This document shows positions 19,005-33,329 of a DNA stretch of 64,000 nucleotides, in pieces. The translations under genes and the position numbers were made by a program. The DNA is taken from the sequence record PZ445511.1, one strand, 5' to 3'. Source of the DNA: a phage. Positions within the stretch are counted from its first letter, which is position 1. Every line of letters begins with the position of its first letter. Under the pieces are notes generated by a model. It ran no database searches. It was not told the DNA's origin and saw nothing but the letters and a program-made list of their open reading frames with translations.

Positions 19005-19033
19005 CCAATCTTATTACCTGTTAGGAAAATAAA

Positions 19034-19234
19034 ATGAAAACACGATATATAGTAAAAGTAGTAGGTGAACATTCGCAAGTAAATACCACGGATGTTACAG
19101 CACTAGCATTTGAGGTAGTCTCCGGTATAGTCATATTTCATAATGGGGATATCAAAGCTCCTGAATTTGCTGTGGATGCTGGCCTGTTTATTTCTGCAAC
19201 TAAAGTAACTGTAGTAGCTAACTCTTCTAAATAA
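19034..19234 (+). CDS. hypothetical protein
   Basis: 66 aa ORF. Confidence 0.4.
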   Translation: MKTRYIVKVVGEHSQVNTTDVTALAFEVVSGIVIFHNGDIKAPEFAVDAGLFISATKVTVVANSSK

Positions 19235-19245
19235 TAAGGAAATAT

Positions 19246-20190: not shown

Positions 20191-20214
20191 TAGTTACACG
20201 TAATCTTCGAACCA

Positions 20215-20247
20215 AGCCCGCGTTTCCTTCGAGAGCGCGGGCTTTTC
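20215..20247 (+). terminator. rho-independent terminator
   Basis: agcccgcg...cgcgggct stem followed by TTTT. Confidence 0.6.
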
Positions 20248-20394
20248 TATATTTAAGGCAAAAGAAAAAGCCCATAAGTTATTCAACTAAGGTCTTTAGT
20301 ATTTAATTCTTTAGAATCATATACTATTATTGCAGCAACAACGTGCTAACCTTAAGTGCCCTGCGATTTTCCTCTAAAAAGTTAAAAAATTCGA

Positions 20395-20423
20395 TTGCTT
20401 GAATGCTAAATTCTCTGTATAAT
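20395..20423 (+). promoter_or_regulatory. early promoter (TTGCTT-17-TATAAT)
   Basis: promoter family member; 42-nt promoter-RBS cassette identical to 22256-22297. Confidence 0.7.
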
Positions 20424-20453
20424 ATATTTATAAATTTGAGAGAGGAATCAAAT

Positions 20454-21509
20454 ATGATTAAGACTGGTCTAGTAATTGGTAAGTTCGCACCATTAACGCG
20501 TGGTCATATTAACCTAATAAACACAGCAGCAACTATGTGTGAACGAGTTATTGTTGTAGTTAGTCATGATAATCGTTGGCTGGATAAGCAGAACACACGT
20601 GATAAGGAAGTATTACAGTTAAAGAATCGACTTCGTTGGTTAGAACAAACTTACGCGGATATTGAGCACATTTCGGTAGAGTACATTATTGAAGATGATA
20701 TTCCTGAATATCCGAATGGTTGGCCGGAATATGCTAGAATCCTTAATGAAAATTACGGACATTTGCCTGAGATCACCGTTTTCTCTAGCGAACTAGACTA
20801 TGATGCAGAATATAAGAAATATCTGCCGAAGTTTGGTCATTATATTGTAGATTCTGATCGGACTCGTGTTCCAATCTCAGCTACAATGATTCGTAATGAT
20901 CTTATGAAGTATTGGGAGTTTCTTCCTAGCGTAGTTCGTAAAGATTACGTGCGTAAGGTTGTAATCATTGGGACTGAAAGCTCGGGAAAGACTACTTTAA
21001 CAAAATACCTTGCGAAGCTATACAACACTTCGTGGGTAGAAGAATATGGTCGAACGTATTGTGAAGTTGATCTAGTTGGTAACGAAAATCTGCTTACCAG
21101 CGAAGATTATAGTAAAATTGCGTTCAGACACAAAGAGCTAGAGTTTGAAGCAGAACGTACTGCAAATAAGATCATGTTTGTGGATACAAATGCTTTTATT
21201 ACTGAGTTCTACCACAGACTTTATGAACATAGTAAGAATCCTGTGGTTACAGCAATTGCAAAAGAAGAACATTATGATTTAGTAATTGTTCTAGCGCCTA
21301 CTGTCAAGTGGGTAGATGATGGTTTACGTATTAACTCCGATCGTTCAATTACTTCTGAACTATTCGAGCAGATGAAGAAAGAATTTCCAAATCAGTTCCC
21401 TGAAGGGCGTACTGTTTACATCGACTCTCCGGACTACAAAGTTCGTATGGACGAAGCAGTAAACGCAGTAGACTGGCTGATTCATCACTTTAACGTTGGA
21501 GAGTTTTAA
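20454..21509 (+). CDS. nadR: bifunctional NMN adenylyltransferase / ribosylnicotinamide kinase (NadR-like)
   Basis: nucleotidyltransferase motif GKFAPLTRGH; P-loop GTESSGKTT in C-terminal half. Confidence 0.7.
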   Translation: MIKTGLVIGKFAPLTRGHINLINTAATMCERVIVVVSHDNRWLDKQNTRDKEVLQLKNRLRWLEQTYADIEHISVEYIIEDDIPEYPNGWPEYARILNENYGHLPEITVFSSELDYDAEYKKYLPKFGHYIVDSDRTRVPISATMIRNDLMKYWEFLPSVVRKDYVRKVVIIGTESSGKTTLTKYLAKLYNTSWVEEYGRTYCEVDLVGNENLLTSEDYSKIAFRHKELEFEAERTANKIMFVDTNAFITEFYHRLYEHSKNPVVTAIAKEEHYDLVIVLAPTVKWVDDGLRINSDRSITSELFEQMKKEFPNQFPEGRTVYIDSPDYKVRMDEAVNAVDWLIHHFNVGEF

Positions 21510-21510
21510 T

Positions 21511-22188
21511 ATGACTAACTATCTCGTAAATGACTTTAAAAACTGGAAACCTCTGGAATATCTGTGGCTGTTCATAGCGGTTGTCTTCATTAGTTTAGCA
21601 AACTATAATGGTACAGCTCTAGATTGGGCTACTGCAATAACCAATGTGGTTTGTGTTATTCTGGTTGCAAAAGGACGTATTTCCAACTATATTTGGGGCT
21701 TAGTGGGTGTTCTTACATATGGTATTACAGCTTTAAACGCAGATCTTTATGGTAACGCTGCACTAAACCTGCTATACTACGTTCCTATGCAGTTTTATGG
21801 AATGTACTTATGGCATAAAAATAAGCCAAGTAATCTGCCAGATGTTCCAACTAAGGTTCTGACTAAAGCCCAAGCTCTGCTGACTCTAGGGATTCTAGCA
21901 GTAGCCACGTTAGGGTATGGTAGTTTCTTAGCTACTACGGCTGATCCATTTCCAATGTTGGATGCATTTACTGCTGTAGGTAGTGTGATCGCTATGTGGC
22001 TTATGGTTAAGCAATATGCCGAGCAGTGGCTGATCTGGATTGCTATTAACATTGGTACTGTGTACATTTGGCTTGTAACTGCTCAATCTACAGGTGCATC
22101 TTATGCAATCCTAGCAATGTGGCTAGTATTCTTAGGTAACTCTATTATAGGAGCCTATAAAGGATACTTTGTACGCGTTAACAAATAA
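21511..22188 (+). CDS. pnuC: nicotinamide riboside transporter PnuC-like
   Basis: about 226 aa polytopic membrane protein directly downstream of nadR; GGAGAG RBS. Confidence 0.6.
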   Translation: MTNYLVNDFKNWKPLEYLWLFIAVVFISLANYNGTALDWATAITNVVCVILVAKGRISNYIWGLVGVLTYGITALNADLYGNAALNLLYYVPMQFYGMYLWHKNKPSNLPDVPTKVLTKAQALLTLGILAVATLGYGSFLATTADPFPMLDAFTAVGSVIAMWLMVKQYAEQWLIWIAINIGTVYIWLVTAQSTGASYAILAMWLVFLGNSIIGAYKGYFVRVNK

Positions 22189-22195
22189 AGTAGTT

Positions 22196-22218
22196 ATAGC
22201 CCTCGCTTAGAGGGCTAT
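22196..22218 (+). terminator. hairpin terminator
   Basis: atagccctc-gctta-gagggctat; weak T tract. Confidence 0.45.
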
Positions 22219-22235
22219 TATACAGAAATTTTCAC

Positions 22236-22264
22236 TTGCTTAATATAGAAAATTTCTGTATAAT
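22236..22264 (+). promoter_or_regulatory. early promoter (TTGCTT-17-TATAAT)
   Basis: promoter family member. Confidence 0.7.
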
Positions 22265-22294
22265 ATATTTATAAATTTGAGAGAGGAATCAAAT

Positions 22295-22591
22295 ATGAAA
22301 CGCATTGTACTTGCATTGACTCTAGTATCTACTTCTGTATTTGCTGCTCCACAACAGGAACTTTGTCAAGTTCAAGTTTGTAATAAGCTAGAACGATTTA
22401 CTCTAGACATTTGGTCCCACATTAAAGATAATATGGGTGAACAGTGTTTTGATATTGTTCTGCCAAAAGAACAAGCTGTTCCTGGGGCTGTTCTCAGCTC
22501 AGAATCACGTTGGTGGCAAGGTTCTTCTATCAACCCAACTAAGAAGTCAGTGACACGTATCAAACAAGTATATCAGTGCAACGTTCAGTAA
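22295..22591 (+). CDS. secreted small protein
   Basis: 98 aa with signal peptide MKRIVLALTLVSTSVFA. Confidence 0.55.
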   Translation: MKRIVLALTLVSTSVFAAPQQELCQVQVCNKLERFTLDIWSHIKDNMGEQCFDIVLPKEQAVPGAVLSSESRWWQGSSINPTKKSVTRIKQVYQCNVQ

Positions 22592-22599
22592 AATTTCAC

Positions 22600-22628
22600 T
22601 TGCTTAATGCCGAAATTTTCTGTATAAT
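22600..22628 (+). promoter_or_regulatory. early promoter (TTGCTT-17-TATAAT)
   Basis: promoter family member. Confidence 0.7.
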
Positions 22629-22661
22629 ATATTCATAAATTTGGAAGATTAGGAACTATTT

Positions 22662-23171
22662 ATGTTAGACTATGAGTCTATACTTTATAGATTCCGTTTA
22701 GAAGATGGTGTACTGGTGTGGAATCCGCTCTCCGGAAACTCCAGAGAGGAGAAGATATTTAATACTAAGTTTGCCAATAAACCTGCGGGATCTTTGCACA
22801 AAAGCTCTGGGTATATCAGAGTTAACGTTGATCACCAAGATTACTTAGCTCATATCATAGTATTTATACTATGATATGGGTATAGGCCGGAAATGGTTGA
22901 TCATAAAGACTGCAATAAGTTAAATATACATCCTTTAAATTTAAGAGCAGCGGATAGTACCACTAATACTCATAATGCTAGTAAATCTTCTAGGAATACT
23001 AGCGGATTTAAGGGAGTATCCTACCACAAAGCATCTGGTCAGTGGCAGGGTAGAATAATGTTTAAAGGTAAGTCATACTCCGCAGGGCTGCACAGTACTC
23101 CTGAAGCAGCAAATGAAGCTCTAATTCAACTGAGAGAGAAACTTCATGGGGAATATGCCCGAAATAATTAA
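22662..23171 (+). pseudogene. HNH endonuclease interrupted by in-frame TGA (22872-22874)
   Basis: ORFs 22662..22874 and 22893..23171 are in the same frame and together align with intact HNH genes at 11687 and 17302. Confidence 0.6.
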
Positions 23172-23257
23172 GGAAGAATAGCATAACGGTATTGCAGCAG
23201 ATTGCTAATCTGTCGGTTTGAAACATAGCCTTGTGGGTTCGATTCCCACTTCTTCCG
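23172..23257 (+). tRNA. tRNA-Ser(GCU)
   Basis: type II fold with long variable arm, discriminator G, anticodon loop ttgctaa, CCA encoded; starts 1 nt after HNH stop. Confidence 0.7.
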
Positions 23258-23265
23258 CCAAATTT

Positions 23266-23340
23266 GGTTCTCAAGCTCATTTGGTATGAGCCGTCGCCTC
23301 ATAAGCGAAAGGTAGGTAGGTTCGAATCCTCCGGGAGCCA
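23266..23340 (+). tRNA. tRNA-Met/Ile(CAU)
   Basis: acceptor ggttctc/gggagcc, anticodon loop ctcataa, T-loop ttcgaat; one T-stem mismatch. Confidence 0.5.
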
Positions 23341-23360
23341 CCAGATAACTAGGAGACTTT

Positions 23361-23435
23361 ATGTCACGCTTTCACGAAATTAAGCAAGAACTAGAAGAAT
23401 GTATGTGTACTGAATGTTGGGGTTCTGGCACTTAA
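23361..23435 (+). CDS. possible Cys-rich micro-protein (24 aa)
   Basis: AGGAGA RBS 5 nt upstream of ATG; CMCTECWG motif. Confidence 0.25.
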   Translation: MSRFHEIKQELEECMCTECWGSGT

Positions 23436-23492
23436 TGTTCCAGTGACTGGATTCCCTGATTGGCTGCAAGGTTACGAACTCTAACAAAATTT

Positions 23493-23575
23493 GGATCTGT
23501 GGTGGAATTGGCAATACACACCATGCTTAAAACGTGGCGCTTAAATGATTGAGGGTTCGAGCCCCTCCAGATCCA
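23493..23575 (+). tRNA. tRNA-Leu(UAA)
   Basis: acceptor ggatctg/cagatcc, anticodon loop cttaaaa, long variable arm, discriminator A, CCA encoded. Confidence 0.7.
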
Positions 23576-23594
23576 CCAAATTAAGGAAGTAAAA

Positions 23595-23717
23595 ATGAAA
23601 TCTATTAAGAAAGCTATTCGTGAACTTATCCGTTGTCGCTTCCATAACATCAAGGCTTCAACTAATGGTACTACTTACGATCGCTATGATCCTAAGTTTG
23701 GCTTACATTCTAAATAA
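23595..23717 (+). CDS. hypothetical small basic protein (40 aa)
   Basis: AAGGAAG RBS; separate frame from ORF track 23620..23937. Confidence 0.35.
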   Translation: MKSIKKAIRELIRCRFHNIKASTNGTTYDRYDPKFGLHSK

Positions 23718-23730
23718 CTGGAGAAAACAA

Positions 23731-23937
23731 ATGGCTAATCCTGAAATTACGGCACAACGTTTTATGCTGAAAGGAATTATTGCTGAAGCAGGCGTGACAC
23801 AAGAAGTGGAAGATTTCCATAAGCAGTTCCTAAATATTCTCACTCAAGCCAAAGAGCTAGGAGAGAAAGAACATGGCGCGGCTATTATGGCAATCACATT
23901 GGTTGGGCTTGATCTGGCAGAAGAATCAGGAGTTTAA
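23731..23937 (+). CDS. hypothetical protein (68 aa)
   Basis: in-frame ATG with GGAG RBS inside ORF 23620..23937. Confidence 0.5.
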   Translation: MANPEITAQRFMLKGIIAEAGVTQEVEDFHKQFLNILTQAKELGEKEHGAAIMAITLVGLDLAEESGV

Positions 23938-23967
23938 CTTCTCCAAGCAGAAATTTTAAAAATGTAC

Positions 23968-23997
23968 TTGCTTTTTACTTAAGATTTCTGCTATAAT
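23968..23997 (+). promoter_or_regulatory. early promoter (TTGCTT-18-TATAAT)
   Basis: promoter family member. Confidence 0.65.
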
Positions 23998-24026
23998 AGT
24001 TATATAAGTTGATGAGAGGAATCAGA

Positions 24027-24302
24027 ATGTTAAAACGTTTTGCAGCAACTGGTATTGAAAGCTCAGTATGTAAATCCTGGGGTGGTTGGGAAGGTGAGAT
24101 CGAGTGGCTTTATTTCTACAATGTAGAACTTCTTCCAGAGATCAAAGCTCAATGTATTGAGGCTGGTATGGCTCCTGATGCTACGGCTGATGTTGAAATC
24201 AGCATGAATAAGCTAGAGGGTCGAGTAGTCACTGTTACTGATGAAGGTGAAGAGGTATTCGAACTTCCATTCACTTTGAAAGTCACTCCTTCATTTGATT
24301 AA
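24027..24302 (+). CDS. hypothetical protein
   Basis: ORF 24009..24302 (TTG); ATG 24027 with GAGAGGAA RBS. Confidence 0.5.
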   Translation: MLKRFAATGIESSVCKSWGGWEGEIEWLYFYNVELLPEIKAQCIEAGMAPDATADVEISMNKLEGRVVTVTDEGEEVFELPFTLKVTPSFD

Positions 24303-24310
24303 CTGATACA

Positions 24311-24351
24311 GCACTTGAGCAAGTTCTTTAAAATTTGACTTGCTCAAGTGC
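24311..24351. repeat. 14-bp perfect inverted repeat overlapping promoter -35
   Basis: gcacttgagcaagt / acttgctcaagtgc separated by 13 bp. Confidence 0.8.
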
Positions 24352-24369
24352 CTTAAAACTTGATATAAT
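24340..24369 (+). promoter_or_regulatory. promoter (TTGCTC-18-TATAAT) ahead of a tRNA block
   Basis: hexamers with 18-bp spacer; no large ORF before tRNA-Tyr. Confidence 0.6.
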
Positions 24370-24493
24370 AGTTACCTAATTTGGAAACATATCTGAATGA
24401 GAAGTAATTAAGCGAGTTGCTTTGAGGGATAAAGTCAGGATAGCCGGAAATATTCCACCTTGAGTTTAACCGACTTACTTTTCATTCAAATAT

Positions 24494-24571
24494 GGGGGAT
24501 TGGCTCAGTGGCGACGGCGCCTGGCTGTAGACCGGGTATATCACGCGGAGGTTCGAGTCCTCCATCCCCCA
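24494..24571 (+). tRNA. tRNA-Tyr(GUA)
   Basis: acceptor gggggat/atccccc, anticodon loop ctgtaga, 10-nt variable region, discriminator A, CCA. Confidence 0.6.
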
Positions 24572-24582
24572 CCAAAATTAAT

Positions 24583-24654
24583 GCACCTATCGTCTAATGG
24601 TTAGGACATCAGGATTTCAATCTGAGAATTGAACTCCGATTCTCCGTGGGTGTG
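24583..24654 (+). tRNA. tRNA-like, probable tRNA-Glu(UUC) with degenerate T-arm
   Basis: acceptor gcaccta/tgggtgt with G-U pairs, good D and anticodon stems, loop atttcaa, CCA encoded. Confidence 0.4.
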
Positions 24655-24666
24655 CCAATTAATAAT

Positions 24667-24734
24667 TGGGGTACACATAGGTTGCTAGTGGGCCTCCAAA
24701 ACCCATGAAAAGGTTTCGAATACCTTTACCCCTG
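24667..24734 (+). tRNA. tRNA-Trp(CCA)-like with shortened D-arm
   Basis: 68 nt; anticodon loop ctccaaa, T-loop ttcgaat, 1-72 U-U mismatch; CCA encoded. Confidence 0.4.
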
Positions 24735-24743
24735 CCAATATTT

Positions 24744-24815
24744 GCACCTTTAGCTGAGATGGATTAGCGCTTGCCTGAAGAGCTTGAGAGGTTCGTTCAA
24801 TTCGAACAGGGTGCA
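24744..24815 (+). tRNA. tRNA-Phe(GAA)-like
   Basis: acceptor gcacctt/agggtgc, anticodon loop ctgaaga, two U-U mismatches in anticodon stem, CCA encoded. Confidence 0.5.
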
Positions 24816-24835
24816 CCAATTTGAAGGAGATGCTG

Positions 24836-25108
24836 ATGCATCCTGAAAACTTCTTTATATACTGTACTAGTCCTTTGCTTAAACGCCGGATTAATAAAGT
24901 ATATCACTACAGAGCTAGTCAACAGCCTTATGTTTATGATTCTAGTGGAGATCATATTCCACTTGAGCAACTAGGGACTGATTATATGGTTTTGAAGCAC
25001 TTTAATGAGGCGAAGATCTCTAGCGTTCATAACCGACAAAACTCTAAAACGTGGTGGCATAAGAAGCGTAAGAAAGGCATCAAATTTCTTAAAAATGTAG
25101 TTGCTTAA
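24836..25108 (+). CDS. hypothetical basic protein
   Basis: ORF 24821..25108 (TTG); ATG 24836 with AGGAG RBS. Confidence 0.5.
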   Translation: MHPENFFIYCTSPLLKRRINKVYHYRASQQPYVYDSSGDHIPLEQLGTDYMVLKHFNEAKISSVHNRQNSKTWWHKKRKKGIKFLKNVVA

Positions 25109-25129
25109 ATCCTTAAAGTTCTGTATAAT
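25101..25129 (+). promoter_or_regulatory. early promoter (TTGCTT-17-TATAAT)
   Basis: promoter family member, overlaps 3' end of upstream ORF. Confidence 0.7.
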
Positions 25130-25157
25130 TATTACATAAATTGAACTGGAGAACTAG

Positions 25158-25346
25158 ATGAAAGCACCTAAACCGAAATTAGTTAAGTTCGACTGCTGTG
25201 ATACTGAAATCTTATTTACTAAGTTTGGTGAATTTAAGATGTGTGAATGTGGAACATGTGGTTACGATCATGGTGATGGATATTATTGCAGAACCCTAGG
25301 GCCTTCTGAACTAATCCACTTCTCATGGCCGGAAAGTAAAGAATAA
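25158..25346 (+). CDS. Cys-rich small protein (putative zinc ribbon)
   Basis: 62 aa; CC..C.C..C..C pattern. Confidence 0.5.
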   Translation: MKAPKPKLVKFDCCDTEILFTKFGEFKMCECGTCGYDHGDGYYCRTLGPSELIHFSWPESKE

Positions 25347-25348
25347 TA

Positions 25349-25421
25349 CGACCGTTGGCTGAATGGCTTAGGCGGAGGCCTGCAAAACCTCCTTATGTGA
25401 GTTCGAATCTCATGCGGTCGT
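25349..25421 (+). tRNA. tRNA-Cys(GCA)
   Basis: acceptor cgaccgt/gcggtcg, anticodon loop ctgcaaa, T-loop ttcgaat, CCA encoded. Confidence 0.6.
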
Positions 25422-25426
25422 CCAAT

Positions 25427-25567
25427 TTGCTGAAAGAATTGTTAAATCAATTCAGGCACGCGTAGGAACACTGCCTCAGTAATTGAAAGATGAGGCACGG
25501 TTTGGAGAGGTATGCCGCTACACGCTACGGTGCTAACTCCGTCTAGGTGAAAATCCTAGTCAGCAAT
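25427..25567 (+). ncRNA. 141-nt tRNA-like RNA (acceptor-like stem plus T-arm-like hairpin around a long insert)
   Basis: ttgctga...tcagcaa terminal pairing; ctagg-tgaaaat-cctag hairpin; internal hairpins; not a canonical tRNA. Confidence 0.3.
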
Positions 25568-25576
25568 ATAAATTTA

Positions 25577-25656
25577 GGGTCGTTAGCCAAGCGGTTTGGC
25601 GGTGGACTGTTAATCCATGTCGAAAGACAACGTAGGTTCGAATCCTACACGGCCCG
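25577..25656 (+). tRNA. tRNA with GUU (Asn) anticodon on a type-II-like body
   Basis: acceptor gggtcgt/acggccc, 3-bp D stem, anticodon stem gtgga/tccat, loop ctgttaa, 13-nt variable arm, discriminator G, CCA. Confidence 0.5.
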
Positions 25657-25762
25657 CCATATTCTATGTAGGATTAAGTAAACCGGTAGCCAACCAGCTA
25701 TCATTACTGATATCGAATTCAGTCACAGATACCATTTTTCACTAACAACTGAGGAAATAGAT

Positions 25763-25948
25763 ATGACAACTCGTGCAATTGCTCGACTAGAAGCTGATCG
25801 TGATAATCTGATTAATAATATTAAGGTTCGTGGTAATATTATTAAGGCTCTGAAAGCTGAACTTCTTGAAGAACTTCAAGGTCAAGTAGAGCGTCGTGAA
25901 GCTCTAAAAGAGGTTGAGGAAGCTATCGAAAAACTCAAGGCTGAATAA
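25763..25948 (+). CDS. hypothetical coiled-coil protein
   Basis: 61 aa with GAGGAAA RBS. Confidence 0.45.
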   Translation: MTTRAIARLEADRDNLINNIKVRGNIIKALKAELLEELQGQVERREALKEVEEAIEKLKAE

Positions 25949-25951
25949 ATT

Positions 25952-26533
25952 ATGCACGGAATATCCTTACCCATTCCAGGGTTTGAGGAGTACTTAGTAA
26001 GTTTGGATGGGTTAGTATTTAGTATCAAATCAAACAAAATACTAACCCCAATAACCAGTAATTATGGATACTTATCTATACGTCTCCATAAAAATGGTCA
26101 ACAGAGAAATACCGGTGTACATAGGATTTTAGCATGTGCATTTAAGAAATTACCAAGTCTAGACTCTGAACTAGAAGTTGACCATATTAACACAGACATT
26201 ACTTATTGGGGTCTTAATAACTTACAAGTGCTCACAAAAGAGCAGCATCTAGAAAAGACTTTAAAAGATAAAGGATTTAGTAAACTAAATCATGATAATT
26301 GTTGTAAGGATTGTGGTAAAGCTATTTCTTTAAAAGCTGAAAAATGTCAGGAGTGCTCTTCACATAAACCAAAAGATATCTCTATAACTAAAGAAATAAT
26401 CGAGGTTACAGTAAGAGAGCTAGGCTGGTCAGGTGCAGGGAGAAAGTTAAATTATTCAGATAATGGGTTGCGTAAAAGATACACTTCTTTAGGAGGCAAT
26501 CCTAAAGAACTTAAAAAGTTAAAGGTACTATAG
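25952..26533 (+). CDS. HNH homing endonuclease with C-terminal Cys4 zinc ribbon
   Basis: 193 aa; EVDHIN..N motif; CKDCG...CQEC; 3' end overlaps tRNA-Asp by 10 nt. Confidence 0.7.
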   Translation: MHGISLPIPGFEEYLVSLDGLVFSIKSNKILTPITSNYGYLSIRLHKNGQQRNTGVHRILACAFKKLPSLDSELEVDHINTDITYWGLNNLQVLTKEQHLEKTLKDKGFSKLNHDNCCKDCGKAISLKAEKCQECSSHKPKDISITKEIIEVTVRELGWSGAGRKLNYSDNGLRKRYTSLGGNPKELKKLKVL

Positions 26534-26595
26534 TCTAACGGTTAGGATACTCCCCTGTCACGGGAGAGGTAGGGTTTCGATTACCCTTAGTACCG
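26524..26595 (+). tRNA. tRNA-Asp(GUC)
   Basis: acceptor ggtacta/tagtacc, anticodon stem ctccc/gggag, loop ctgtcac, T-loop ttcgatt, CCA. Confidence 0.75.
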
Positions 26596-26604
26596 CCAAA
26601 TTAT

Positions 26605-26678
26605 ACATCCATAGCTCAACTGGTCAGAGCTACCGCCTCTTAAGCGGAGGGTTGAAGGTTCAAGTCCTTCTGGGAGTA
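26605..26678 (+). tRNA. tRNA-Lys(CUU)
   Basis: D-stem gctc/gagc, anticodon loop ctcttaa, T-arm gaagg-ttcaagt-ccttc, CCA; one acceptor mismatch. Confidence 0.5.
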
Positions 26679-26686
26679 CCAAACAA

Positions 26687-26880
26687 ATAGAGTAAAGGCT
26701 ACAGTAGGTGCACCCTTACGGACTGCTACACCGGACTCTATTCATTAACAAACATTCTAGCGTGGTGGAGAGGGGACACCAGCTGTGCGAGGGTAGAAGC
26801 TTGTTCGATTCAAGTGAAAGAATGGTTCTCGTAAATCCGCAGCAGTGATAGTAGGTTCAAGTCCTACCTAGATTGACTTA
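26687..26880 (+). ncRNA. unresolved tRNA-like RNAs (two T-arm-like hairpins, one 66-nt acceptor-paired element)
   Basis: atagagt...actctat pairing; T-arm-like gcttg-ttcgatt-caagt and gtagg-ttcaagt-cctac without matching acceptors. Confidence 0.3.
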
Positions 26881-26884
26881 TTAT

Positions 26885-26955
26885 GCGTTCGTAGTTAAAA
26901 GGTATAATTTTTGGTTGCCAACCAGAAGTTGAGGGTTCGATTCCCTCCGACCGCA
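26885..26955 (+). tRNA. tRNA-Gly(GCC)
   Basis: anticodon stem tttgg/ccaga, loop ttgccaa, T-arm gaggg-ttcgatt-ccctc, CCA. Confidence 0.6.
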
Positions 26956-26959
26956 CCAA

Positions 26960-27180
26960 ATTTAGGGTTCTGCTTCCTAGAGAACGGACTCCTAGATAAA
27001 CAAGGCGATGAGTTTCCGGCCGGTTCTAGTCGCTGAAAATCCTCCCGACCAGGTAGGTGTAGGTAAACGAAAGTTTACTTATTGAGTAGGTTCCGATAGA
27101 TCGGCGGATCTATTCTGGCATTTAAGAGAAGTCTCGCAAACTTCTTTGTCAGCAGAGCGTTTGAAGCGTGAGGTGGCCTA
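26960..27180 (+). ncRNA. non-coding tRNA-cluster spacer with hairpins, candidate small RNA
   Basis: 220 nt, no ORF or canonical tRNA; gtcgctgaaaatcctcccgacc element resembles the T-arm-like hairpin of the 25427 element. Confidence 0.25.
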
Positions 27181-27209
27181 CACAATAAGTAAATTTATTA
27201 AAAACTCAT

Positions 27210-27238
27210 TTGCTATTTCACTTAATTCTCTTTATAAT
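27210..27238 (+). promoter_or_regulatory. early promoter (TTGCTA-17-TATAAT) for a tRNA block
   Basis: promoter family member directly upstream of tRNA-Pro. Confidence 0.7.
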
Positions 27239-27270
27239 ATATCTTATAAAGTGAGTTAACAAAGAATATT

Positions 27271-27345
27271 CTCCGTGTAGCTCAGTTTGGCCAGAGCGTT
27301 CCGTTTGGGGCGGTAGGGTCGGGGGTTCAAATCCTCCCACGGAGA
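27271..27345 (+). tRNA. tRNA-Pro(UGG)
   Basis: acceptor ctccgtg/cacggag perfect, anticodon loop tttgggg, T-loop ttcaaat, CCA. Confidence 0.65.
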
Positions 27346-27354
27346 CCAAACAAT

Positions 27355-27429
27355 TGCGGGTTAGATCTCTGGTAGAGATCGCTAGTCTCATAAGCTAGAA
27401 AGAGGTAGGTTCGATTCCTACACCCGCTT
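27355..27429 (+). tRNA. tRNA-Met/Ile(CAU), 1-72 unpaired
   Basis: anticodon stem ctagt/gctag, loop ctcataa, T-arm gtagg-ttcgatt-cctac, CCA; position 1-72 U-U. Confidence 0.5.
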
Positions 27430-27451
27430 CCAATTTAATAGAGGATACGAA

Positions 27452-27616
27452 ATGAAATTATTTCGATTGGTAGTAAGTGATAGACGGTCTAGCAAAGATC
27501 GTTCGAAGTATACCTTAGCCCATTATGGGAAAGATGAAAATGAAGTAATGGCTGAATTTGGTATTAATCATCGCTACTTAGAAGTTTACTCTATTAAGGA
27601 AGTTTATCCGTATTAA
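27452..27616 (+). CDS. hypothetical small protein (54 aa)
   Basis: GAGGA RBS 6 nt before ATG; stop abuts tRNA-Lys. Confidence 0.4.
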   Translation: MKLFRLVVSDRRSSKDRSKYTLAHYGKDENEVMAEFGINHRYLEVYSIKEVYPY

Positions 27617-27691
27617 GGGTCGTTAGCTCAATTGGTTAGTAGCACTTGCCTTTTAAGCAATAGGTTGAAGGTTCGAGTCCTTCACGACCCA
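27617..27691 (+). tRNA. tRNA-Lys(UUU)
   Basis: acceptor gggtcgt/acgaccc perfect, anticodon loop cttttaa, T-arm gaagg-ttcgagt-ccttc, CCA. Confidence 0.7.
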
Positions 27692-27703
27692 CCAAATTAC
27701 TTT

Positions 27704-27774
27704 GCTCGGTTAGTTTAATGGGAGAACCCCGTCTTTACACGGCGGTTGCGATAGTTCGATTCTATCACCGAGTA
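27704..27774 (+). tRNA. tRNA-Val(UAC)
   Basis: anticodon stem ccgtc/ggcgg, loop tttacac, T-arm gatag-ttcgatt-ctatc, CCA. Confidence 0.7.
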
Positions 27775-27802
27775 CCAATTAACTCAAAATAAGGAATTGC
27801 AA

Positions 27803-28156
27803 ATGCAATTATCAAGCAAGATTCAAGGCTATTTTGGTCATGTAACAATGGAGTTCGCTATCTCTAAAGGTTGGGATTTCGAGCAAGATCTAGCTGAGTT
27901 CTACAAAGATATTGATCTGAACGTACCATACATGGGACTCTCCACTGGTCAAGAGATCACAGAAGGCGATGTGTTCAAGGCAAGTCAAGGTGAGGTAACA
28001 CCTAATTTTGCCAAGTTCTGGTTAGGACTTACTTTGAAGGAAGATGCACCAGAGGATGGTGTGGTTATGCAGAGTATGCACTCTGGAAGCTCTGATTACC
28101 TTTTCGTTAGCGACGTTAAGGAACTACAAGAAATCGCTAAAAATGTACTTGCTTGA
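27803..28156 (+). CDS. hypothetical protein
   Basis: ORF 27797..28156; ATG 27803 with AAGGA RBS; stop overlaps next promoter -35. Confidence 0.55.
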   Translation: MQLSSKIQGYFGHVTMEFAISKGWDFEQDLAEFYKDIDLNVPYMGLSTGQEITEGDVFKASQGEVTPNFAKFWLGLTLKEDAPEDGVVMQSMHSGSSDYLFVSDVKELQEIAKNVLA

Positions 28157-28177
28157 TGCTTAATTTCTTGTTATAAT
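28149..28177 (+). promoter_or_regulatory. early promoter (TTGCTT-17-TATAAT) for a tRNA block
   Basis: promoter family member. Confidence 0.7.
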
Positions 28178-28179
28178 AT

Positions 28180-28439
28180 TTATATAAATTGATGAGGAGA
28201 AATCCTCATCAAAGTTCACTAAGGTATTAGCTCGACCTAGGGCTGGCTGCCAAAAAGCACAATTGCAATTAGACCCCTAATGGCGGGGGATACTTTGCAA
28301 TAAGTTCTAGATTAGTCCACTAGATTCAGTGGCAACTGAATAGTGTATCGGGTTTGTGAAGAGCGGTTATCCTCTACTGGCTAATGTCTGAGGGTAATAC
28401 GCACACCGAGCTAATAGCCTTAGTAAACTTAAAGATTTT
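28180..28439 (+). ncRNA. 260-nt structured leader or small RNA ahead of the tRNA-Ala pair
   Basis: hairpins gatgagga-gaaa-tcctcatc (28191-28210) and ccact-agattc-agtgg; no ORF. Confidence 0.3.
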
Positions 28440-28515
28440 GGGGAATGGGTCTGCTTGGAGTGGACACCTCGCTTGCACCGAGGATATCAGAAGAGTTCGA
28501 ATCTCTTATTCTCCA
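28440..28515 (+). tRNA. tRNA-Ala(UGC)-like
   Basis: G3-U70 pair, anticodon stem cctcg/cgagg, loop cttgcac, T-arm aagag-ttcgaat-ctctt, CCA; atypical D and variable lengths. Confidence 0.5.
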
Positions 28516-28523
28516 CCAAATTC

Positions 28524-28596
28524 GGGGTCATAGGTTATTTGGTTAAACTTACTGCCTTGCAAGCAGTGGAACTCAGTTCAATTCTGAGTGACTCCA
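28524..28596 (+). tRNA. tRNA-Ala(UGC)
   Basis: G3-U70 pair, anticodon stem actgc/gcagt, loop cttgcaa, T-arm ctcag-ttcaatt-ctgag, CCA. Confidence 0.65.
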
Positions 28597-28618
28597 CCAA
28601 ACAAATTAAGGAAATAAT

Positions 28619-28837
28619 ATGGTATTCTTAGCAGCCTCTGTAGTTCTTGCAGCTTTAGCACTAGCTATCTATTTTAGAACTATTAAAGATTTAGCTAAAG
28701 AAAAGAAAACTTTCTTTACTGATTATTCTTGGGGCGCTCCATATAACGTCCGCTTTATCAGCTTAGAAGCTATGCTGATAATGGTATTCAGTGGCATAGG
28801 TTCCATTGTTGCAGGGTTACTATTTATTTCTAACTAA
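28619..28837 (+). CDS. small membrane protein
   Basis: 72 aa with two hydrophobic helices. Confidence 0.5.
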   Translation: MVFLAASVVLAALALAIYFRTIKDLAKEKKTFFTDYSWGAPYNVRFISLEAMLIMVFSGIGSIVAGLLFISN

Positions 28838-28844
28838 ATAAAAT

Positions 28845-28922
28845 GGGGATGTGGCGAAATTGGCAGACGCGCTAGATTTAGGTTCTAGTCTTCGGGTGTG
28901 GGTTCGAGTCCCTCCATCCCTA
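28845..28922 (+). tRNA. tRNA-Leu(UAG)
   Basis: anticodon stem ctaga/tctag perfect, loop tttaggt, 9-nt variable region, discriminator A, CCA. Confidence 0.6.
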
Positions 28923-29099
28923 CCAAACATTGGATTAACTCATGATGAAAACTCCTATAACTGATATCTGGTTAGCTGTTAATACATCAACTAAAGAGTA
29001 TGTGTTTATAGAGTATGGTCAGAGGTATGACCAAAAGATGTATAATCTCATACTTCCAGTATCTGCTAATGAAGTTTATGATTTAATCCTGAGATCTAC

Positions 29100-29189
29100 G
29101 GAAGAGCAAATCGATTAGGTGACGAAAACCGCTTGGAAAGTGGCTGACTTGTTAAAGCAGGCTTGAGAGTTCGAATCTCTCTTCTTCCG
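29100..29189 (+). tRNA. tRNA-Ser(GGA)
   Basis: 90 nt, acceptor ggaagag/ttcttcc, anticodon loop ttggaaa, long variable arm, discriminator G, CCA. Confidence 0.55.
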
Positions 29190-29213
29190 CCAAACAACTA
29201 ATAGGGAATATAA

Positions 29214-29456
29214 ATGAAAGTCAAGATTATGATGTTGGATTTAGCTAATGATAAGTTTTTCTTGCGTCATACATTCCCTAGTAAGCAAGCTTTAGAGTTT
29301 CATATCAAGTACGCAATGGGCATGAAACTTCCTGAGCGAGAAATATTTGATAAAGCATGTGATACTGGAGTTATTTATGTATGGCAAACAACCTATCATG
29401 ATAATCCAGAAGATCTTCGAAAAGAAGTAGAACAAATACTAGAAGATAGTACGTAG
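29214..29456 (+). CDS. hypothetical protein
   Basis: 80 aa; 3' end overlaps tRNA-Ser(UGA) by 16 nt. Confidence 0.5.
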   Translation: MKVKIMMLDLANDKFFLRHTFPSKQALEFHIKYAMGMKLPEREIFDKACDTGVIYVWQTTYHDNPEDLRKEVEQILEDST

Positions 29457-29527
29457 TGGTATGTAACCGGTCTTGAAAACCGGCCCGCTGTAGTGATACG
29501 GTGATGGTTCGACTCCATTATCTTCTG
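29441..29527 (+). tRNA. tRNA-Ser(UGA)
   Basis: acceptor agaagat/atcttct perfect, anticodon stem ccggt/accgg, loop cttgaaa, long variable arm, discriminator G, CCA. Confidence 0.7.
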
Positions 29528-29530
29528 CCA

Positions 29531-29667
29531 AATCTTGAAGTATGCCGGAATCGGTAGACGGGGCTTCCTAAAGGGCGTAAGGGGAACATCCACTCCTCAT
29601 AAGATACCCGAAAACGAGGCTGAGATAACTGGTCTATCTCGTGAAGGTTCGAGTCCTTCTGCTTCTT
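29531..29667 (+). ncRNA. tRNA-like RNA with canonical T-arm but no clean cloverleaf
   Basis: T-arm gaagg-ttcgagt-ccttc at 29643-29659 preceded by hairpin gagata-actggtc-tatctc; best acceptor partner aggggaa at 29580 has a mismatch; no CCA. Confidence 0.3.
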
Positions 29668-29669
29668 GA

Positions 29670-29855
29670 TATTCATCAATGGCTCAAAGTGTAACGGTGC
29701 TATTTGATGCTCTTAGTAAGACTTTCCCGACATGCGTTCGGGAGTAAGCTGCTAAGGCTAGAGTAGAAGAGTTTCGGAGAGCCGCCACAATTGAAGTCTT
29801 TAGAATGGGTATCGCCCTTTAGCCCCTCCGAAAGGGATAACTAGAGATTTCAATT
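29670..29855 (+). ncRNA. structured non-coding segment bounded by 11-bp inverted repeat
   Basis: ccacaattgaa (29776-29786) and ttcaattgtgg (29849-29859) flank a GC hairpin ccctttagcccctccgaaaggg. Confidence 0.25.
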
Positions 29856-29929
29856 GTGGCTATATCATAATTGGTTAATGATCCTGATTGTGAATCAGGC
29901 CTATGTGGATTCGAATTCCACTAGCCACC
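29856..29929 (+). tRNA. tRNA-His(GUG)
   Basis: acceptor gtggcta/tagccac perfect, anticodon stem cctga/tcagg, loop ttgtgaa, T-arm gtgga-ttcgaat-tccac, CCA. Confidence 0.7.
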
Positions 29930-29938
29930 CCAAATATT

Positions 29939-30010
29939 GCGTCCTTATTTCAACGGAAAGAATGTAAAGCTACGAACTTTACGATCGGGGTTCGATTCCC
30001 TGAGGATGCA
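29939..30010 (+). tRNA. tRNA-Arg(ACG)
   Basis: anticodon stem taaag/cttta, loop ctacgaa, T-arm cgggg-ttcgatt-ccctg, CCA. Confidence 0.7.
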
Positions 30011-30037
30011 CCAATTAACTTAAACAGGAAATAAAAT

Positions 30038-30238
30038 ATGGCTGATTTCTGCAAAGAATGCTCTATTGATATGTGGGGCAGAGATACTGGTGATCTTTCT
30101 GGTCTGATTACAGAAGCCGAAGTTAAAGAAGGCTATGGTGCTGTTGTAATCTGTGAAGGTTGTGGCATTATCCGTGTTGATCATAATGGTAAACGTCTAG
30201 AAGAACCTGATCCAATCGCCACGGTTCCTGTAGAATAA
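30038..30238 (+). CDS. Cys-rich small protein (CxxC...CxxC)
   Basis: 66 aa; CKEC...CEGCG. Confidence 0.5.
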   Translation: MADFCKECSIDMWGRDTGDLSGLITEAEVKEGYGAVVICEGCGIIRVDHNGKRLEEPDPIATVPVE

Positions 30239-30245
30239 AAATTAT

Positions 30246-30318
30246 TGGGATGTAGATCAATTGGTAGATCGTCGGCCTCTGACTCCGAAGGTTCCACGTT
30301 CGATCCGTGGCATCCCAG
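30246..30318 (+). tRNA. tRNA-Gln(CUG)
   Basis: U1-A72, anticodon loop ctctgac, T-arm ccacg-ttcgatc-cgtgg, CCA. Confidence 0.65.
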
Positions 30319-30327
30319 CCAAACAAT

Positions 30328-30400
30328 TGGAGAGTAGTGTAACGGTTAGCACAACGGCCTTTGACTCCGTTAATGGTAGGTTCGATTCCTCCTTCTCCAG
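30328..30400 (+). tRNA. tRNA-Gln(UUG)
   Basis: paralog of previous; anticodon loop ctttgac; U1-A72; CCA. Confidence 0.65.
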
Positions 30401-30409
30401 CCAATTTAT

Positions 30410-30481
30410 GCGTGATTAGTTCAGTGGCTAGAATAACTGGCTTCCAACCAGTAGACACGAGTTCGACTCTCGTATCCCGCA
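30410..30481 (+). tRNA. tRNA-Gly(UCC)
   Basis: anticodon stem actgg/ccagt, loop cttccaa, T-arm acgag-ttcgact-ctcgt, CCA. Confidence 0.7.
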
Positions 30482-30500
30482 CCAAATATAAGGAAACGTT

Positions 30501-30722
30501 ATGGACGTTTTTGAGTTTCGTAATAAAAATCCTAATAGACGAGTTTTAATTATTGGTGAAACATACCGAGCTTATGAACAGGAAGACGGTTCGGTTTTAT
30601 TAAATGATGAAAAGCAAGGCTATAGCTTTCATCCAGAAGAAACATATGAAGAATTTCGTACTAAGTTTCTTTTACCAGACTGGCTAGCAATAGCTGAGCA
30701 AAGAGAACCCGAAGAGGGCTGA
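30501..30722 (+). CDS. hypothetical acidic protein
   Basis: 73 aa with AAGGAAA RBS. Confidence 0.5.
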   Translation: MDVFEFRNKNPNRRVLIIGETYRAYEQEDGSVLLNDEKQGYSFHPEETYEEFRTKFLLPDWLAIAEQREPEEG

Positions 30723-30750
30723 TAATCTAAAGCTAAAGGTTGATAAGCAA

Positions 30751-30879
30751 ATGAAGTGTGTTGAGGTTGAGTTGGGTGAAGAACGTTTAAAACTCTCATT
30801 CGAATTTCTACAGCAGTTGGCTATGACAGTAATGTCTGATAAGTCCCTTATATTTGAAAAAGAAATCCCGTTGAAATAA
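30751..30879 (+). CDS. possible small protein (42 aa)
   Basis: ATG with AAAGG upstream; below ORF-track length cutoff. Confidence 0.25.
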   Translation: MKCVEVELGEERLKLSFEFLQQLAMTVMSDKSLIFEKEIPLK

Positions 30880-30889
30880 TGGGTTTATT

Positions 30890-30961
30890 GCTCCTAAAGC
30901 ATTGCTGGCGATGCAGTTGCCTTGTAAGCATCTGAACCGGGTTCGATTCCAGGTGGGAGCA
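30890..30961 (+). tRNA. tRNA-Thr(UGU)
   Basis: acceptor gctccta/tgggagc, anticodon loop cttgtaa, T-loop ttcgatt, CCA; single mismatches in stems. Confidence 0.55.
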
Positions 30962-30980
30962 CCAAATTTAAAAAATTCAT

Positions 30981-31009
30981 TTGCCTTCTCTCTTATTTCT
31001 TGTTATAAT
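30981..31009 (+). promoter_or_regulatory. early promoter (TTGCCT-17-TATAAT)
   Basis: promoter family member. Confidence 0.65.
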
Positions 31010-31039
31010 ATTTATATAAATTAATTAGAGGGAAACCAA

Positions 31040-31333
31040 ATGAAACGTTATCTTTCTGTCGTGTTCCAAACTGGTGGTCAACGCTACACTTATGAATTTC
31101 CTGAGTCCTGGAAAATTAAAGAAGGTGATCAAGTTGTTGTATTAACACCTCGTGAAGGCTTCAAAGTAGTAACGGTTAAACAAGTATTTCCAAAAGATCA
31201 CGAACCATCTAAGTCTATTCAGTACAAGATGATTCACGGTCTGGTACGAAAAGTACCTAGAACAGAAGTCGAAGTAGATAAAACTGGGGGAGTTAAGTAT
31301 CAATATACATCCTACTTAGACGAGATGATGTAA
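31040..31333 (+). CDS. hypothetical protein
   Basis: 97 aa ORF. Confidence 0.55.
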   Translation: MKRYLSVVFQTGGQRYTYEFPESWKIKEGDQVVVLTPREGFKVVTVKQVFPKDHEPSKSIQYKMIHGLVRKVPRTEVEVDKTGGVKYQYTSYLDEMM

Positions 31334-31533
31334 TGAGAATTACTTTCACAGAAAAGATTATGTGTAATGGTGTTATGATCATTACAGCGTGGGACGGTAA
31401 ATTGTGGTGTAACGTATCTGGTCTAAAGCCAGAAGATCAAACACCTGAAAACATCCGCAAAGTAAAGCGAAAAATGGCGGAACGTGCCCAACTTCCAGGT
31501 GCTCCAAGAAATGGAGGCTATTTTTCAACCTAA
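31333..31533 (+). CDS. hypothetical protein
   Basis: 66 aa ORF, start overlaps upstream stop. Confidence 0.5.
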   Translation: MRITFTEKIMCNGVMIITAWDGKLWCNVSGLKPEDQTPENIRKVKRKMAERAQLPGAPRNGGYFST

Positions 31534-31534
31534 T

Positions 31535-31607
31535 GCTCCGATAGTTCAACAGGTTAGAACAGGCGACCGATAATCGTCAAATCTTGGTTCGATCCCAAGT
31601 CGGAGTA
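31535..31607 (+). tRNA. tRNA-Ile(GAU)
   Basis: D-stem gttc/gaac, anticodon stem ggcga/tcgtc, loop ccgataa, T-arm cttgg-ttcgatc-ccaag, CCA. Confidence 0.6.
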
Positions 31608-31616
31608 CCAAATTAT

Positions 31617-31689
31617 AGTTAGTTGGCAGAACGGTTATGCACCTCCTTCATACGGAGCGACTACAGTGGTTCAACTCCACTACTAACTA
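31617..31689 (+). tRNA. tRNA-Met/Ile(CAU)
   Basis: acceptor agttagt/actaact perfect, anticodon loop ttcatac, T-arm agtgg-ttcaact-ccact, CCA. Confidence 0.55.
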
Positions 31690-31875
31690 CCAAAGATAAG
31701 ATCAGGCCTTTGTGCCAGATCTCTGTGTTTATTAAACTGAATGGGACTATCAATCCACAAGCCGGACTACGAGCGATTATCGGGTATTCACTTAATAAAC
31801 AGCCTGCCTCCCAGTTTTTATCTTGCTTCTGGGTTAACAAAAAGCTGAGCCAAATTCTAACATCAGGGAGATCTA

Positions 31876-32244
31876 ATGAAAGCATATCAAAGTCTTAAGT
31901 CTGGCGTAATTAACATTGTTCATAACAATCAGATCATTCAACTATATTCTAAAGATGGTAAACTTAAACAGAAAGTTCTAGTCGAAGATCTAGAAGGTAT
32001 CACACCTCACTTTGACCCTGAGGCCTTTCGCATTGTAGATGTGGAAGTGGTTCCTCAAGTCGAGGGTGGTCAGCACCTAAATGTCAATGTGTTAAGCCGT
32101 GATCAGCTTTTGGATGCACAGAAACATCCTGAAAAATATCCTCAGTTGACCATCCGTGTCTCTGGCTATGCTGTTCGATTTAACGCATTGACGCGTGAAC
32201 AACAGAACGACGTTATTAGTCGTACATTTACTCAGGCGATATAA
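31876..32244 (+). CDS. grcA: autonomous glycyl-radical cofactor (GrcA/YfiD-like)
   Basis: 122 aa; C-terminal block GGQHLNVNV...[20 protein letters not shown] matches my recollection of E. coli GrcA including the RVSGY radical motif. Confidence 0.75.
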
Positions 32245-32325
32245 TGGGGTTTGGATACGATTTCTCCCAGCTACGCAAGGTAGTCGAGCAAACTCCATTT
32301 ATCTCCCAAGTTTTAGGAGAAATGT

Positions 32326-32625
32326 GTGGATCGAGCATTAAGACGCCATCACCGGCAACGTGTGAAAAACAATCGCAAAAAGTATTGGACAGTCTTCCCA
32401 CATGAAGAAAGTCCTAAGCGGTTAGGCATTATCACTACCACTCCTTGCATCTGTTCTTGTTGGATGTGTGGGAATCCTCGCAAATACTATAAGAATAGTA
32501 AAGCAGGTATGAAAATCTCGGAGATTAAAAAGATGGGTGCAATGATTATGGGCATCACCTTTACAGGCGGTATCTCTGATGAATTCGACGGTTTTGTAAC
32601 TCAGGATATTGTCGAAATTATCTAA
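32326..32625 (+). CDS. hypothetical basic, Cys-containing protein (GTG start)
   Basis: 99 aa; AGGAGA RBS 6 nt upstream of GTG; CICSCWMC cluster. Confidence 0.4.
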   Translation: MDRALRRHHRQRVKNNRKKYWTVFPHEESPKRLGIITTTPCICSCWMCGNPRKYYKNSKAGMKISEIKKMGAMIMGITFTGGISDEFDGFVTQDIVEII

Positions 32626-32933: not shown

Positions 32934-33329
32934 ATGAGCCGTACATATCGTAAACAATCTGGTGATCGTCACTGGCGTGATGCACATCGTTCTACTTATA
33001 ATTTTCATAGCACTAATATCCGTATTCCGTATATCTACACGGATAGGGATGGTAAGCAGTGGAAGTATTATCAAGTTCGATCCAATGAAGCATGGGCTAA
33101 AACTTGGGATGAAATTGAGAAGGAGATTCAGGAAAATATCATCCGTAACGAGAAGAAAGATGGGCACTGGTGGGATTCTGTTAGTAGGAATGTTAAGTGG
33201 CATTCTAACAAAATGGTTCGTCATGGAAACCGTCGTGAACTTCACCGTGTGATGAAAGATCCAGAAAATTACGACTATAATCGTGATCATGACCTGCGTA
33301 AGCGTGGGTTATGGTGGGTTTACGACTAA
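32934..33329 (+). CDS. hypothetical basic protein
   Basis: 131 aa with GGAGG RBS. Confidence 0.55.
   Translation: MSRTYRKQSGDRHWRDAHRSTYNFHSTNIRIPYIYTDRDGKQWKYYQVRSNEAWAKTWDEIEKEIQENIIRNEKKDGHWWDSVSRNVKWHSNKMVRHGNRRELHRVMKDPENYDYNRDHDLRKRGLWWVYD

Follow-up and report, generated by a model that had tools for sequence, protein, structure and literature searches.

The stretch of DNA examined here, referred to as the window, comprises 64,000 nt of sequence record PZ445511.1 and belongs to a T5-like Salmonella/E. coli phage (Demerecviridae, Markadamsvirinae, Epseptimavirus). Two glycyl-radical proteins, and only two, were found in it: the product of a small gene resembling grcA (yfiD) of E. coli, and NrdD. 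The GrcA-like gene starts 184 nt past a tRNA-Met gene, on the same strand and in the early region (Table 1). The window corresponds to 61.9-114.5 kb plus 0-13 kb of phage rutana. With respect to phages already known it is a mosaic: its nrdD and A1 match those of Salmonella phage S147 at 100% identity, and the region of the GrcA-like gene shares 99.1% identity with S.Typ Adana and approximately 98.5% with S147 and rutana.

Table 1. Features of the window that are discussed in the text, in window coordinates.
Feature	Position	Strand	Remarks
Sir2-family NAD-dependent deacylase gene	314..1165	-	PF02146
ORF, phrog_7953	1541..1822	-	93 aa
nrdD, class III anaerobic ribonucleotide reductase	1921..3795	-	624 aa; NF006732, PF13597
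phoH	4142..4903		
nrdA	5211..7601		
Cluster of 28 tRNAs	17822..31692		
tRNA, anticodon TCA	17822..17895	+	tRNA-SeC according to ARAGORN
tRNA-Met	31617..31692	+	last of the 28-tRNA cluster; ARAGORN
Shine-Dalgarno-like AGGGAGA	31865..31871	+	4 nt 5' of the ATG of the GrcA-like gene; read from the sequence
GrcA-like CDS, including stop	31876..32244	+	122 aa, ATG start; T5-like counterpart of E. coli GrcA/YfiD and T4 vs.6/Y06I
N-terminal half, codons 1-60	31876..32055	+	variable; loose alignment to bacterial GrcA
Glycyl-radical domain, codons 61-122	32056..32241	+	equivalent to YfiD 61-127 and PFL 693-759
Gly97 codon GGC	32164..32166	+	predicted radical site in RVSGYAV; aligns with G102 of GrcA and G734 of PFL
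ORF, phrog_31464	32244..32405	+	53 aa
ORF, phrog_4499	32326..32625	+	99 aa
DUF7295 gene	32934..33329	+	131 aa; PF23967, E 3.4e-58; phrog_5021
A1	56965..58634		

The GrcA-like reading frame is bounded by stop codons, its ATG is the earliest start past the in-frame stop, and the product is a stand-alone small protein in the class of approximately 115-130 aa. The Pfam domain Gly_radical (PF01228) was matched at residues 62-103 with an E-value of 3.9e-18 (66.4 bits, cutoff 22.2). In BLASTP searches the protein showed 74% identity to residues 54-127 of E. coli GrcA (query residues 51-122, E 1e-37), with the glycine-radical motif conserved, and 77% identity to residues 700-760 of PflB. The initial annotation had recognized, from the sequence alone, that the C-terminal 60 residues including RVSGY resemble E. 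coli GrcA, and these searches bear it out. Among PDB sequences the top match was E. coli GrcA/YfiD (6owr, E 2.5e-29), with PFL next (E 1.6e-26). The similarity to T4 vs.6 (Y06I) covers residues 1-122 against 1-120 (51% identity, E 4e-38), and phrog_1209 matches the protein over its full length (E 5.7e-47). The NCBIfam equivalog model TIGR04365 (spare_glycyl) scored 118.3 bits against a cutoff of 170 and aligned to residues 54-121 only, because the N-terminal 55 or so residues diverge and are unmatched by the model; the GrcA2 and GrcA3 variant models likewise scored under their cutoffs. The model for formate C-acetyltransferase, TIGR01255, reached 84.3 bits against a cutoff of 994.2, at model positions 683-743 only. 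PflB and TdcE end in the same loop and helix, but they are enzymes of about 760 aa, whereas the phage protein is without their catalytic barrel of about 700 residues and without the Cys418/Cys419 pair. The GrcA-like protein is not an enzyme by itself.

In an alignment of 35 phage and bacterial GrcA-family sequences, 35 columns of the glycyl-radical domain were invariant, and RVSGYA was invariant as well. Over its last 61 residues the GrcA-like protein is identical to TdcE at 52 (85%), to GrcA at 49 (80%), to PflB at 47 (77%), and to T4 vs.6 also at 47. The segment past the radical glycine bears a TdcE signature and resembles TdcE more than it does PflB or GrcA, which explains why some public records label the gene '2-ketobutyrate formate-lyase'; the segment before the glycine is more GrcA-like by manual count on the tail alignment. 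The N-terminal 50 or so residues showed no detectable likeness to E. coli GrcA in phmmer and HMM searches, and about 60 residues of this half are common to T4 vs.6 and, loosely, to GrcA. An AF2 model of the protein (mean pLDDT 73) reproduced the glycyl hairpin and the C-terminal helix, and Foldseek retrieved with its C-terminal half the NMR structure of YfiD (6owr, E 1.6e-6, TM 0.75 on target) and 2pfl (E 2e-4). According to this model, the C-terminal half is predicted to adopt the fold of YfiD 61-127 and PFL 693-759. The N-terminal half was modeled as beta-strands with a pLDDT of approximately 80, and approximately 88 in a bacterial GrcA control. The first 60 residues of YfiD in isolation are disordered by NMR, and YfiD's N-terminal half helps binding and activation of cleaved PFL (cPFL) but not catalysis (PMC8683613). 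Since AF2 predicts the beta sheet in bacterial GrcA too, though NMR finds disorder, the model gives no evidence of a difference, and an ordered N-terminal domain was dropped as a phage-specific novelty.

The other glycyl-radical protein is well defined by its family models. NrdD scored 840.6 bits with NF006732 (cutoff 657) and matched PF13597 with an E-value of 1.4e-172; together with the PF01228 match of the small protein, these results agree with the earlier count of two glycyl-radical proteins in the window. NrdD keeps the cysteine equivalent to C175, the Met-Gly-Cys thiyl loop, the four zinc cysteines and RRVCGY, which places it in class III. Judged by these residues the enzyme is intact and of the formate-dependent E. 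coli/T4 type, which is marked by the Met-Gly-Cys loop; formate is the reductant of the class III ribonucleotide reductases of E. coli and T4 (PMC4390871). NrdD aligns with the NF006732 model only from position 89 onward and thus is without the N-terminal ATP-cone. E. coli NrdD has an ATP-cone, whereas T4 NrdD, as the window NrdD, has none, and presumably there is no on-off regulation of the window enzyme by dATP and ATP. The neighbors of nrdD are phoH and nrdA, and no nrdG lies among them. NrdD without NrdG was described for phages T5, EPS7 and SPC35 (Dwivedi et al., 2013; PMC3653736), and their layout with nrdAB and phoH does not differ materially from that of the window. A host-like glycyl loop of NrdD was considered as a sign that host NrdG is used. 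The window loop shares 25 of 31 residues with E. coli, and T4 shares 18 of 31; Vibrio phage Brizo has its own NrdG yet scores 24 of 31, so loop likeness does not discriminate and the measure was dropped.

The absence of a radical-SAM activase, asserted in the initial annotation for the window, was examined with E. coli NrdG, E. coli PflA, T4 NrdG and NrdG profiles of two to three sequences as queries (phmmer/hmmsearch --max). No homolog of NrdG or PflA was detected when every ORF of 35 aa or longer, in all six frames of the window, was searched with filters off, and the best E-value there and in rutana, S.Typ Adana and S147 was 0.05. With the same method NrdG was recovered in Brizo (1e-62), T4 (4e-47) and a FelixO1-like phage (6e-16), and the PflA query recovered NrdGs across families (E 5.6e-12); therefore, the sensitivity of the search was adequate. 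A credible CX3CX2C ORF (at least 150 aa, with NrdG/PflA homology) was absent from the window, rutana, S.Typ Adana and S147. To cover an nrdG located just outside the window, the close relatives were searched: none was found in the approximately 48 kb beyond the window in S147 and S.Typ Adana, nor in the whole rutana genome. Positions 1-50000 of S147 abut positions 1..2147 (99.7% identity) and 63519..64000 (97.7%) of the window, and the searched segment of S.Typ Adana overlaps both window ends; the annotations of these segments list structural and replication genes only. By proxy, assuming that the phage resembles its 98-100% identical relatives, an activase should be absent from the rest of the genome as well. 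Dependence on host activases, as proposed before, follows from the absence in the window and in three close relatives, at the level of sequence evidence.

Two candidates for an activase were considered and rejected. The 99-aa ORF downstream of the GrcA-like gene, the only real gene found with a string like CX3CX2C, was evaluated as a mini or truncated radical-SAM protein, for it contains CICSCWMC with 'TFTGG' 40 residues on and matches the NCBIfam model of HxsC with an E-value of 0.028. The members of its family (T5 ORF053/T5.055, n = 88) are 55-104 aa long and have no Pfam domain; 'TFTGG' lies in an indel-prone segment and is missing in most of them, a conserved GG motif is lacking, and TPCxCSCxMC is the sole invariant cysteine motif. 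The 93-aa ORF downstream of nrdD, where nrdG would be expected, showed 25 residues of likeness to NrdG ('KDxWLWxxY', E 0.02-0.07). This likeness was attributed to chance: the ORF has no cysteine cluster and no Pfam or NCBIfam match, hhalign gave a probability of 0.2%, and the motif is missing in divergent relatives. Salmonella phage GE_vB_B3 (109 kb) seemed to be an NrdG-bearing T5-like phage, but it belongs to Ounavirinae (FelixO1-like) and is hence irrelevant. In Brizo (Ermolyevavirinae, a distant member of Demerecviridae), positions 883..6483 hold nrdD, a small ORF, two class I ribonucleotide reductase genes, annotated only as 'ribonucleotide reductase', and nrdG. Because Brizo keeps nrdG, the absence of nrdG is a trait of the enterobacterial T5 subfamily.

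The GrcA-like protein is widespread among phages. With tblastn, 1,584 phage records yielded homologs; those at 80% identity or more, about 440, constitute the T5-like clade, and the remainder are T4-like, jumbo, and Vibrio/Aeromonas phages. Megablast counts among T5-like records were approximately 433 for the GrcA-like gene, approximately 441 for the hallmark gene A1, and 394 for nrdD. The dN/dS of the gene (Nei-Gojobori, against T5-like alleles approximately 10% divergent in protein from EC122, SCF and SHSML-45) was 0.07-0.12 overall, 0.09-0.18 for codons 1-60, and approximately 0.03 for codons 61-122, and both halves are under purifying selection. Public labels of the gene include 'glycyl radical cofactor', 'autonomous glycyl radical cofactor', 'pyruvate formate-lyase', '2-ketobutyrate formate-lyase', 'acetyltransferase-related protein', 'ribonucleotide reductase subunit', and 'hypothetical'. 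The GrcA-like gene of T5-like phages is thus known and already annotated in several records; a text search of the literature found no paper on a T5-specific GrcA-like protein or nrdG. The mixed labels in T5-like records should all become 'autonomous glycyl radical cofactor (GrcA/Y06I-like)', and the importance of the gene beyond correct annotation is small. The sole mildly new detail is that the T5-like proteins have a TdcE-like tail, and nothing departs from known kinds.

The nearest known entity is T4 vs.6/Y06I, which was characterized in 2001 according to the account in PMC8683613. Both proteins are phage-encoded and about 120 aa long, their similarity includes the N-terminal half, they have the same RVSGYAV, and neither phage carries pflA. 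They differ in the C-terminal 61 residues, which in T4 vs.6 are identical to E. coli GrcA at 59 positions and in the T5-like protein are closest to TdcE. The genomic neighbors of the two genes are unrelated, and no conserved gene pairing with the neighbors of T4 vs.6 was found. T4 encodes its own NrdG, whereas the phage of the window does not; since T4 has NrdG yet no PflA, the missing NrdG and the missing PflA are separate issues. The link drawn earlier between the GrcA-like gene and a lacking NrdG needs revision in this respect: NrdG is absent indeed, but for a GrcA-type protein PflA is the activase that matters. E. coli GrcA/YfiD (6owr; TIGR04365; IPR011140) is similar in size and two-part layout, and 6owr is the best fold match in the PDB; it is encoded by a stress-regulated chromosomal gene, whereas the GrcA-like gene lies in the tRNA/early-gene region of a lytic phage.

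Active PFL is cleaved by O2 at G734. Catalysis is restored once YfiD or T4 Y06I has bound to this cleaved form and host PFL-AE has given it a glycyl radical, and these two are the only validated spare parts (PMC8683613). The restoration of O2-cleaved PFL by T4 Y06I with host PFL-AE was reported by Wagner et al. (2001), as summarized in PMC8683613. In vivo, GrcA restores formate output to a PflB G734A strain, and the radical moves from G102 to C419 (PMC12338860). The host gene set of E. coli includes pflA, nrdG, pflB, tdcE, and grcA. With the identity in sequence and predicted fold, the conservation, the selection and the absence of activases established for the GrcA-like gene, its product in T5-like phages most likely functions in PFL rescue, by analogy with the homologs T4 Y06I and E. 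coli YfiD. We consider it quite probable that the protein belongs to the GrcA/YfiD/Y06I kind as a glycyl-radical 'spare part' that stands alone and would rescue host PFL with the aid of host PflA. In an anaerobic or microaerobic host, oxygen would cleave active PFL at its radical glycine, and maybe the paralog TdcE likewise. The C-terminal domain of the phage protein would then dock into the damaged enzyme and take the place of the glycyl loop and C-terminal helix that were lost; host PflA (PFL-AE) would put a radical on Gly97, and its transfer to the catalytic cysteine of the enzyme would bring back the production of acetyl-CoA and formate. The plausible benefit is that the supply of ATP and formate may be sustained during infection.

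An early event in T5-type infection is the shut-off and degradation of the host genome. As one molecule would be used per rescue and host GrcA would not be replenished after the shut-off, it makes sense that the phage supplies this part, whereas activases are catalytic and the host pool is pre-existing, so that neither pflA nor nrdG would need to be carried. The phage NrdD would likewise have to use host NrdG. The client of the spare part is likely host PflB and/or TdcE, rather than glycyl-radical enzymes (GREs) in general or the phage NrdD. The earlier proposal of a rescue of oxygen-damaged GREs therefore holds in so far as such a rescue by the T4 homolog with PFL-AE is on record, but its range should probably be narrowed to PflB/TdcE. 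On the whole, the initial annotation is supported as essentially right at the level that sequence analysis can reach. If this assignment is correct, the gene represents another case in which lytic phages of gut enterobacteria supply the anaerobic metabolism of the host with a consumable repair part and leave the catalytic activases to the host.

PFL yields formate, the reductant of NrdD of the window type, and this suggests a possible link between the two glycyl-radical genes. In its full form, the two genes of enterobacterial T5-like phages would be one unit relying wholly on host activases, in which the GrcA-like protein, with a TdcE-like tail and an N-terminal half of its own, keeps the formate of host PflB/TdcE available, despite fluctuating oxygen and once the host is shut off, for the orphan NrdD, itself activated by host NrdG. 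This is a speculative proposal that we think is probably wrong; more T5-like records contain the GrcA-like gene than contain nrdD, so a formate coupling is not obligatory. If the proposal were true, the spare part would serve anaerobic dNTP supply rather than being a general metabolic aid, and the formate-NrdD link would provide a testable model of dNTP synthesis of T5-like phages in the oxygen-fluctuating gut and be of modest interest for anaerobic phage therapy.

The rescue of PFL has to be weighed against other interpretations of the gene. The client could be TdcE (2-ketobutyrate/pyruvate formate-lyase of the anaerobic threonine pathway) instead of PflB, the part being derived from TdcE or tuned to it. 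The tail nearest to TdcE, its signature past the glycine, the contrast with the GrcA-like tail of T4 vs.6, and the '2-ketobutyrate formate-lyase' label in several records all point to TdcE. However, the differences among the tails of TdcE, GrcA and PflB are few and conservative, the segment before the glycine leans toward GrcA, and other phage GrcA-like proteins likewise contain 'DVIS' and 'NALT', so that the signature may be lineage drift. Moreover, the tails of PflB and TdcE are 85% identical, which means that one spare part may serve both, and no spare-part rescue of TdcE was found in the literature examined; an exclusive TdcE client is accordingly improbable in our judgment. NrdD, which is also cleaved by oxygen at its glycine, was considered as the client as well, since nrdD occurs in the same genome and spare parts for other GREs were speculated on (PMC8683613). 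Compared with the 77% identity to PflB, the GrcA-like protein showed no similarity to NrdD of the window or of E. coli (blastp E > 30, phmmer E 0.22), from which it follows that it is not a spare part for NrdD; it is also without the zinc-binding CxxC...CxxC and the RRVCGY of the NrdD C-terminus, and its gene is commoner than nrdD among T5-like records. We give this interpretation almost no credence.

The confinement of the PFL/TdcE match to the C-terminal 61 residues, together with the inconsistent labels, many of which read 'pyruvate formate-lyase', would be expected if the gene were a captured, non-functional fragment of host pflB or tdcE. Against such an origin, the gene has its own start codon and a Shine-Dalgarno sequence, its N-terminal 60 or so residues are conserved, common to T4 vs.6 and loosely related to GrcA, and the T4 homolog is biochemically active (PMC8683613). 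The low dN/dS, in the N-terminal half too, and the near-universal presence in the approximately 440 T5-like genomes indicate a maintained functional gene and not a captured pflB fragment, which makes this explanation extremely unlikely. Inhibitory mimics are frequent in phages, and the divergent N-terminal half could in principle alter partner binding; on these grounds the protein might work as a decoy by titrating host PflA or by capping PFL, and so redirect or shut down host fermentation. In the radical domain, however, every residue relevant to catalysis is invariant and purifying selection is very strong (dN/dS approximately 0.03), which a decoy would not need, and the T4 homolog restores activity (PMC8683613), so that a decoy function is very unlikely.

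Further observations concern the surroundings of the two genes. The ATG of the 53-aa ORF overlaps the stop codon of the GrcA-like gene (TAATG), and this ORF also overlaps the 99-aa ORF in a different frame. Public records annotate either one or the other; given the overlap, at most one of the two gene models may be right. The family of the 99-aa ORF consists of small basic proteins that are found in T5-like phages only and share an invariant RRHHRxR besides the four-cysteine TPCxCSCxMC; the product probably binds metal. A DUF7295 gene follows downstream on the same strand. Between nrdD and phoH, rutana carries at positions 15798..16469 an extra hypothetical ORF of 223 aa, rutana_78, which is absent from the window (3750..3957), has no similarity to activases, and is probably a mobile insertion. 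The Sir2-family deacylase gene adjoins the ribonucleotide reductase cluster, and in the syntenic stretch of rutana genes for a NadR-like adenylyltransferase and a PnuC transporter (rutana_104/105) form with Sir2 an NAD-related module. The tRNA with the anticodon TCA, called tRNA-SeC in the window, is recorded as 'tRNA-OTHER' in rutana and could be opal-suppressor-like.
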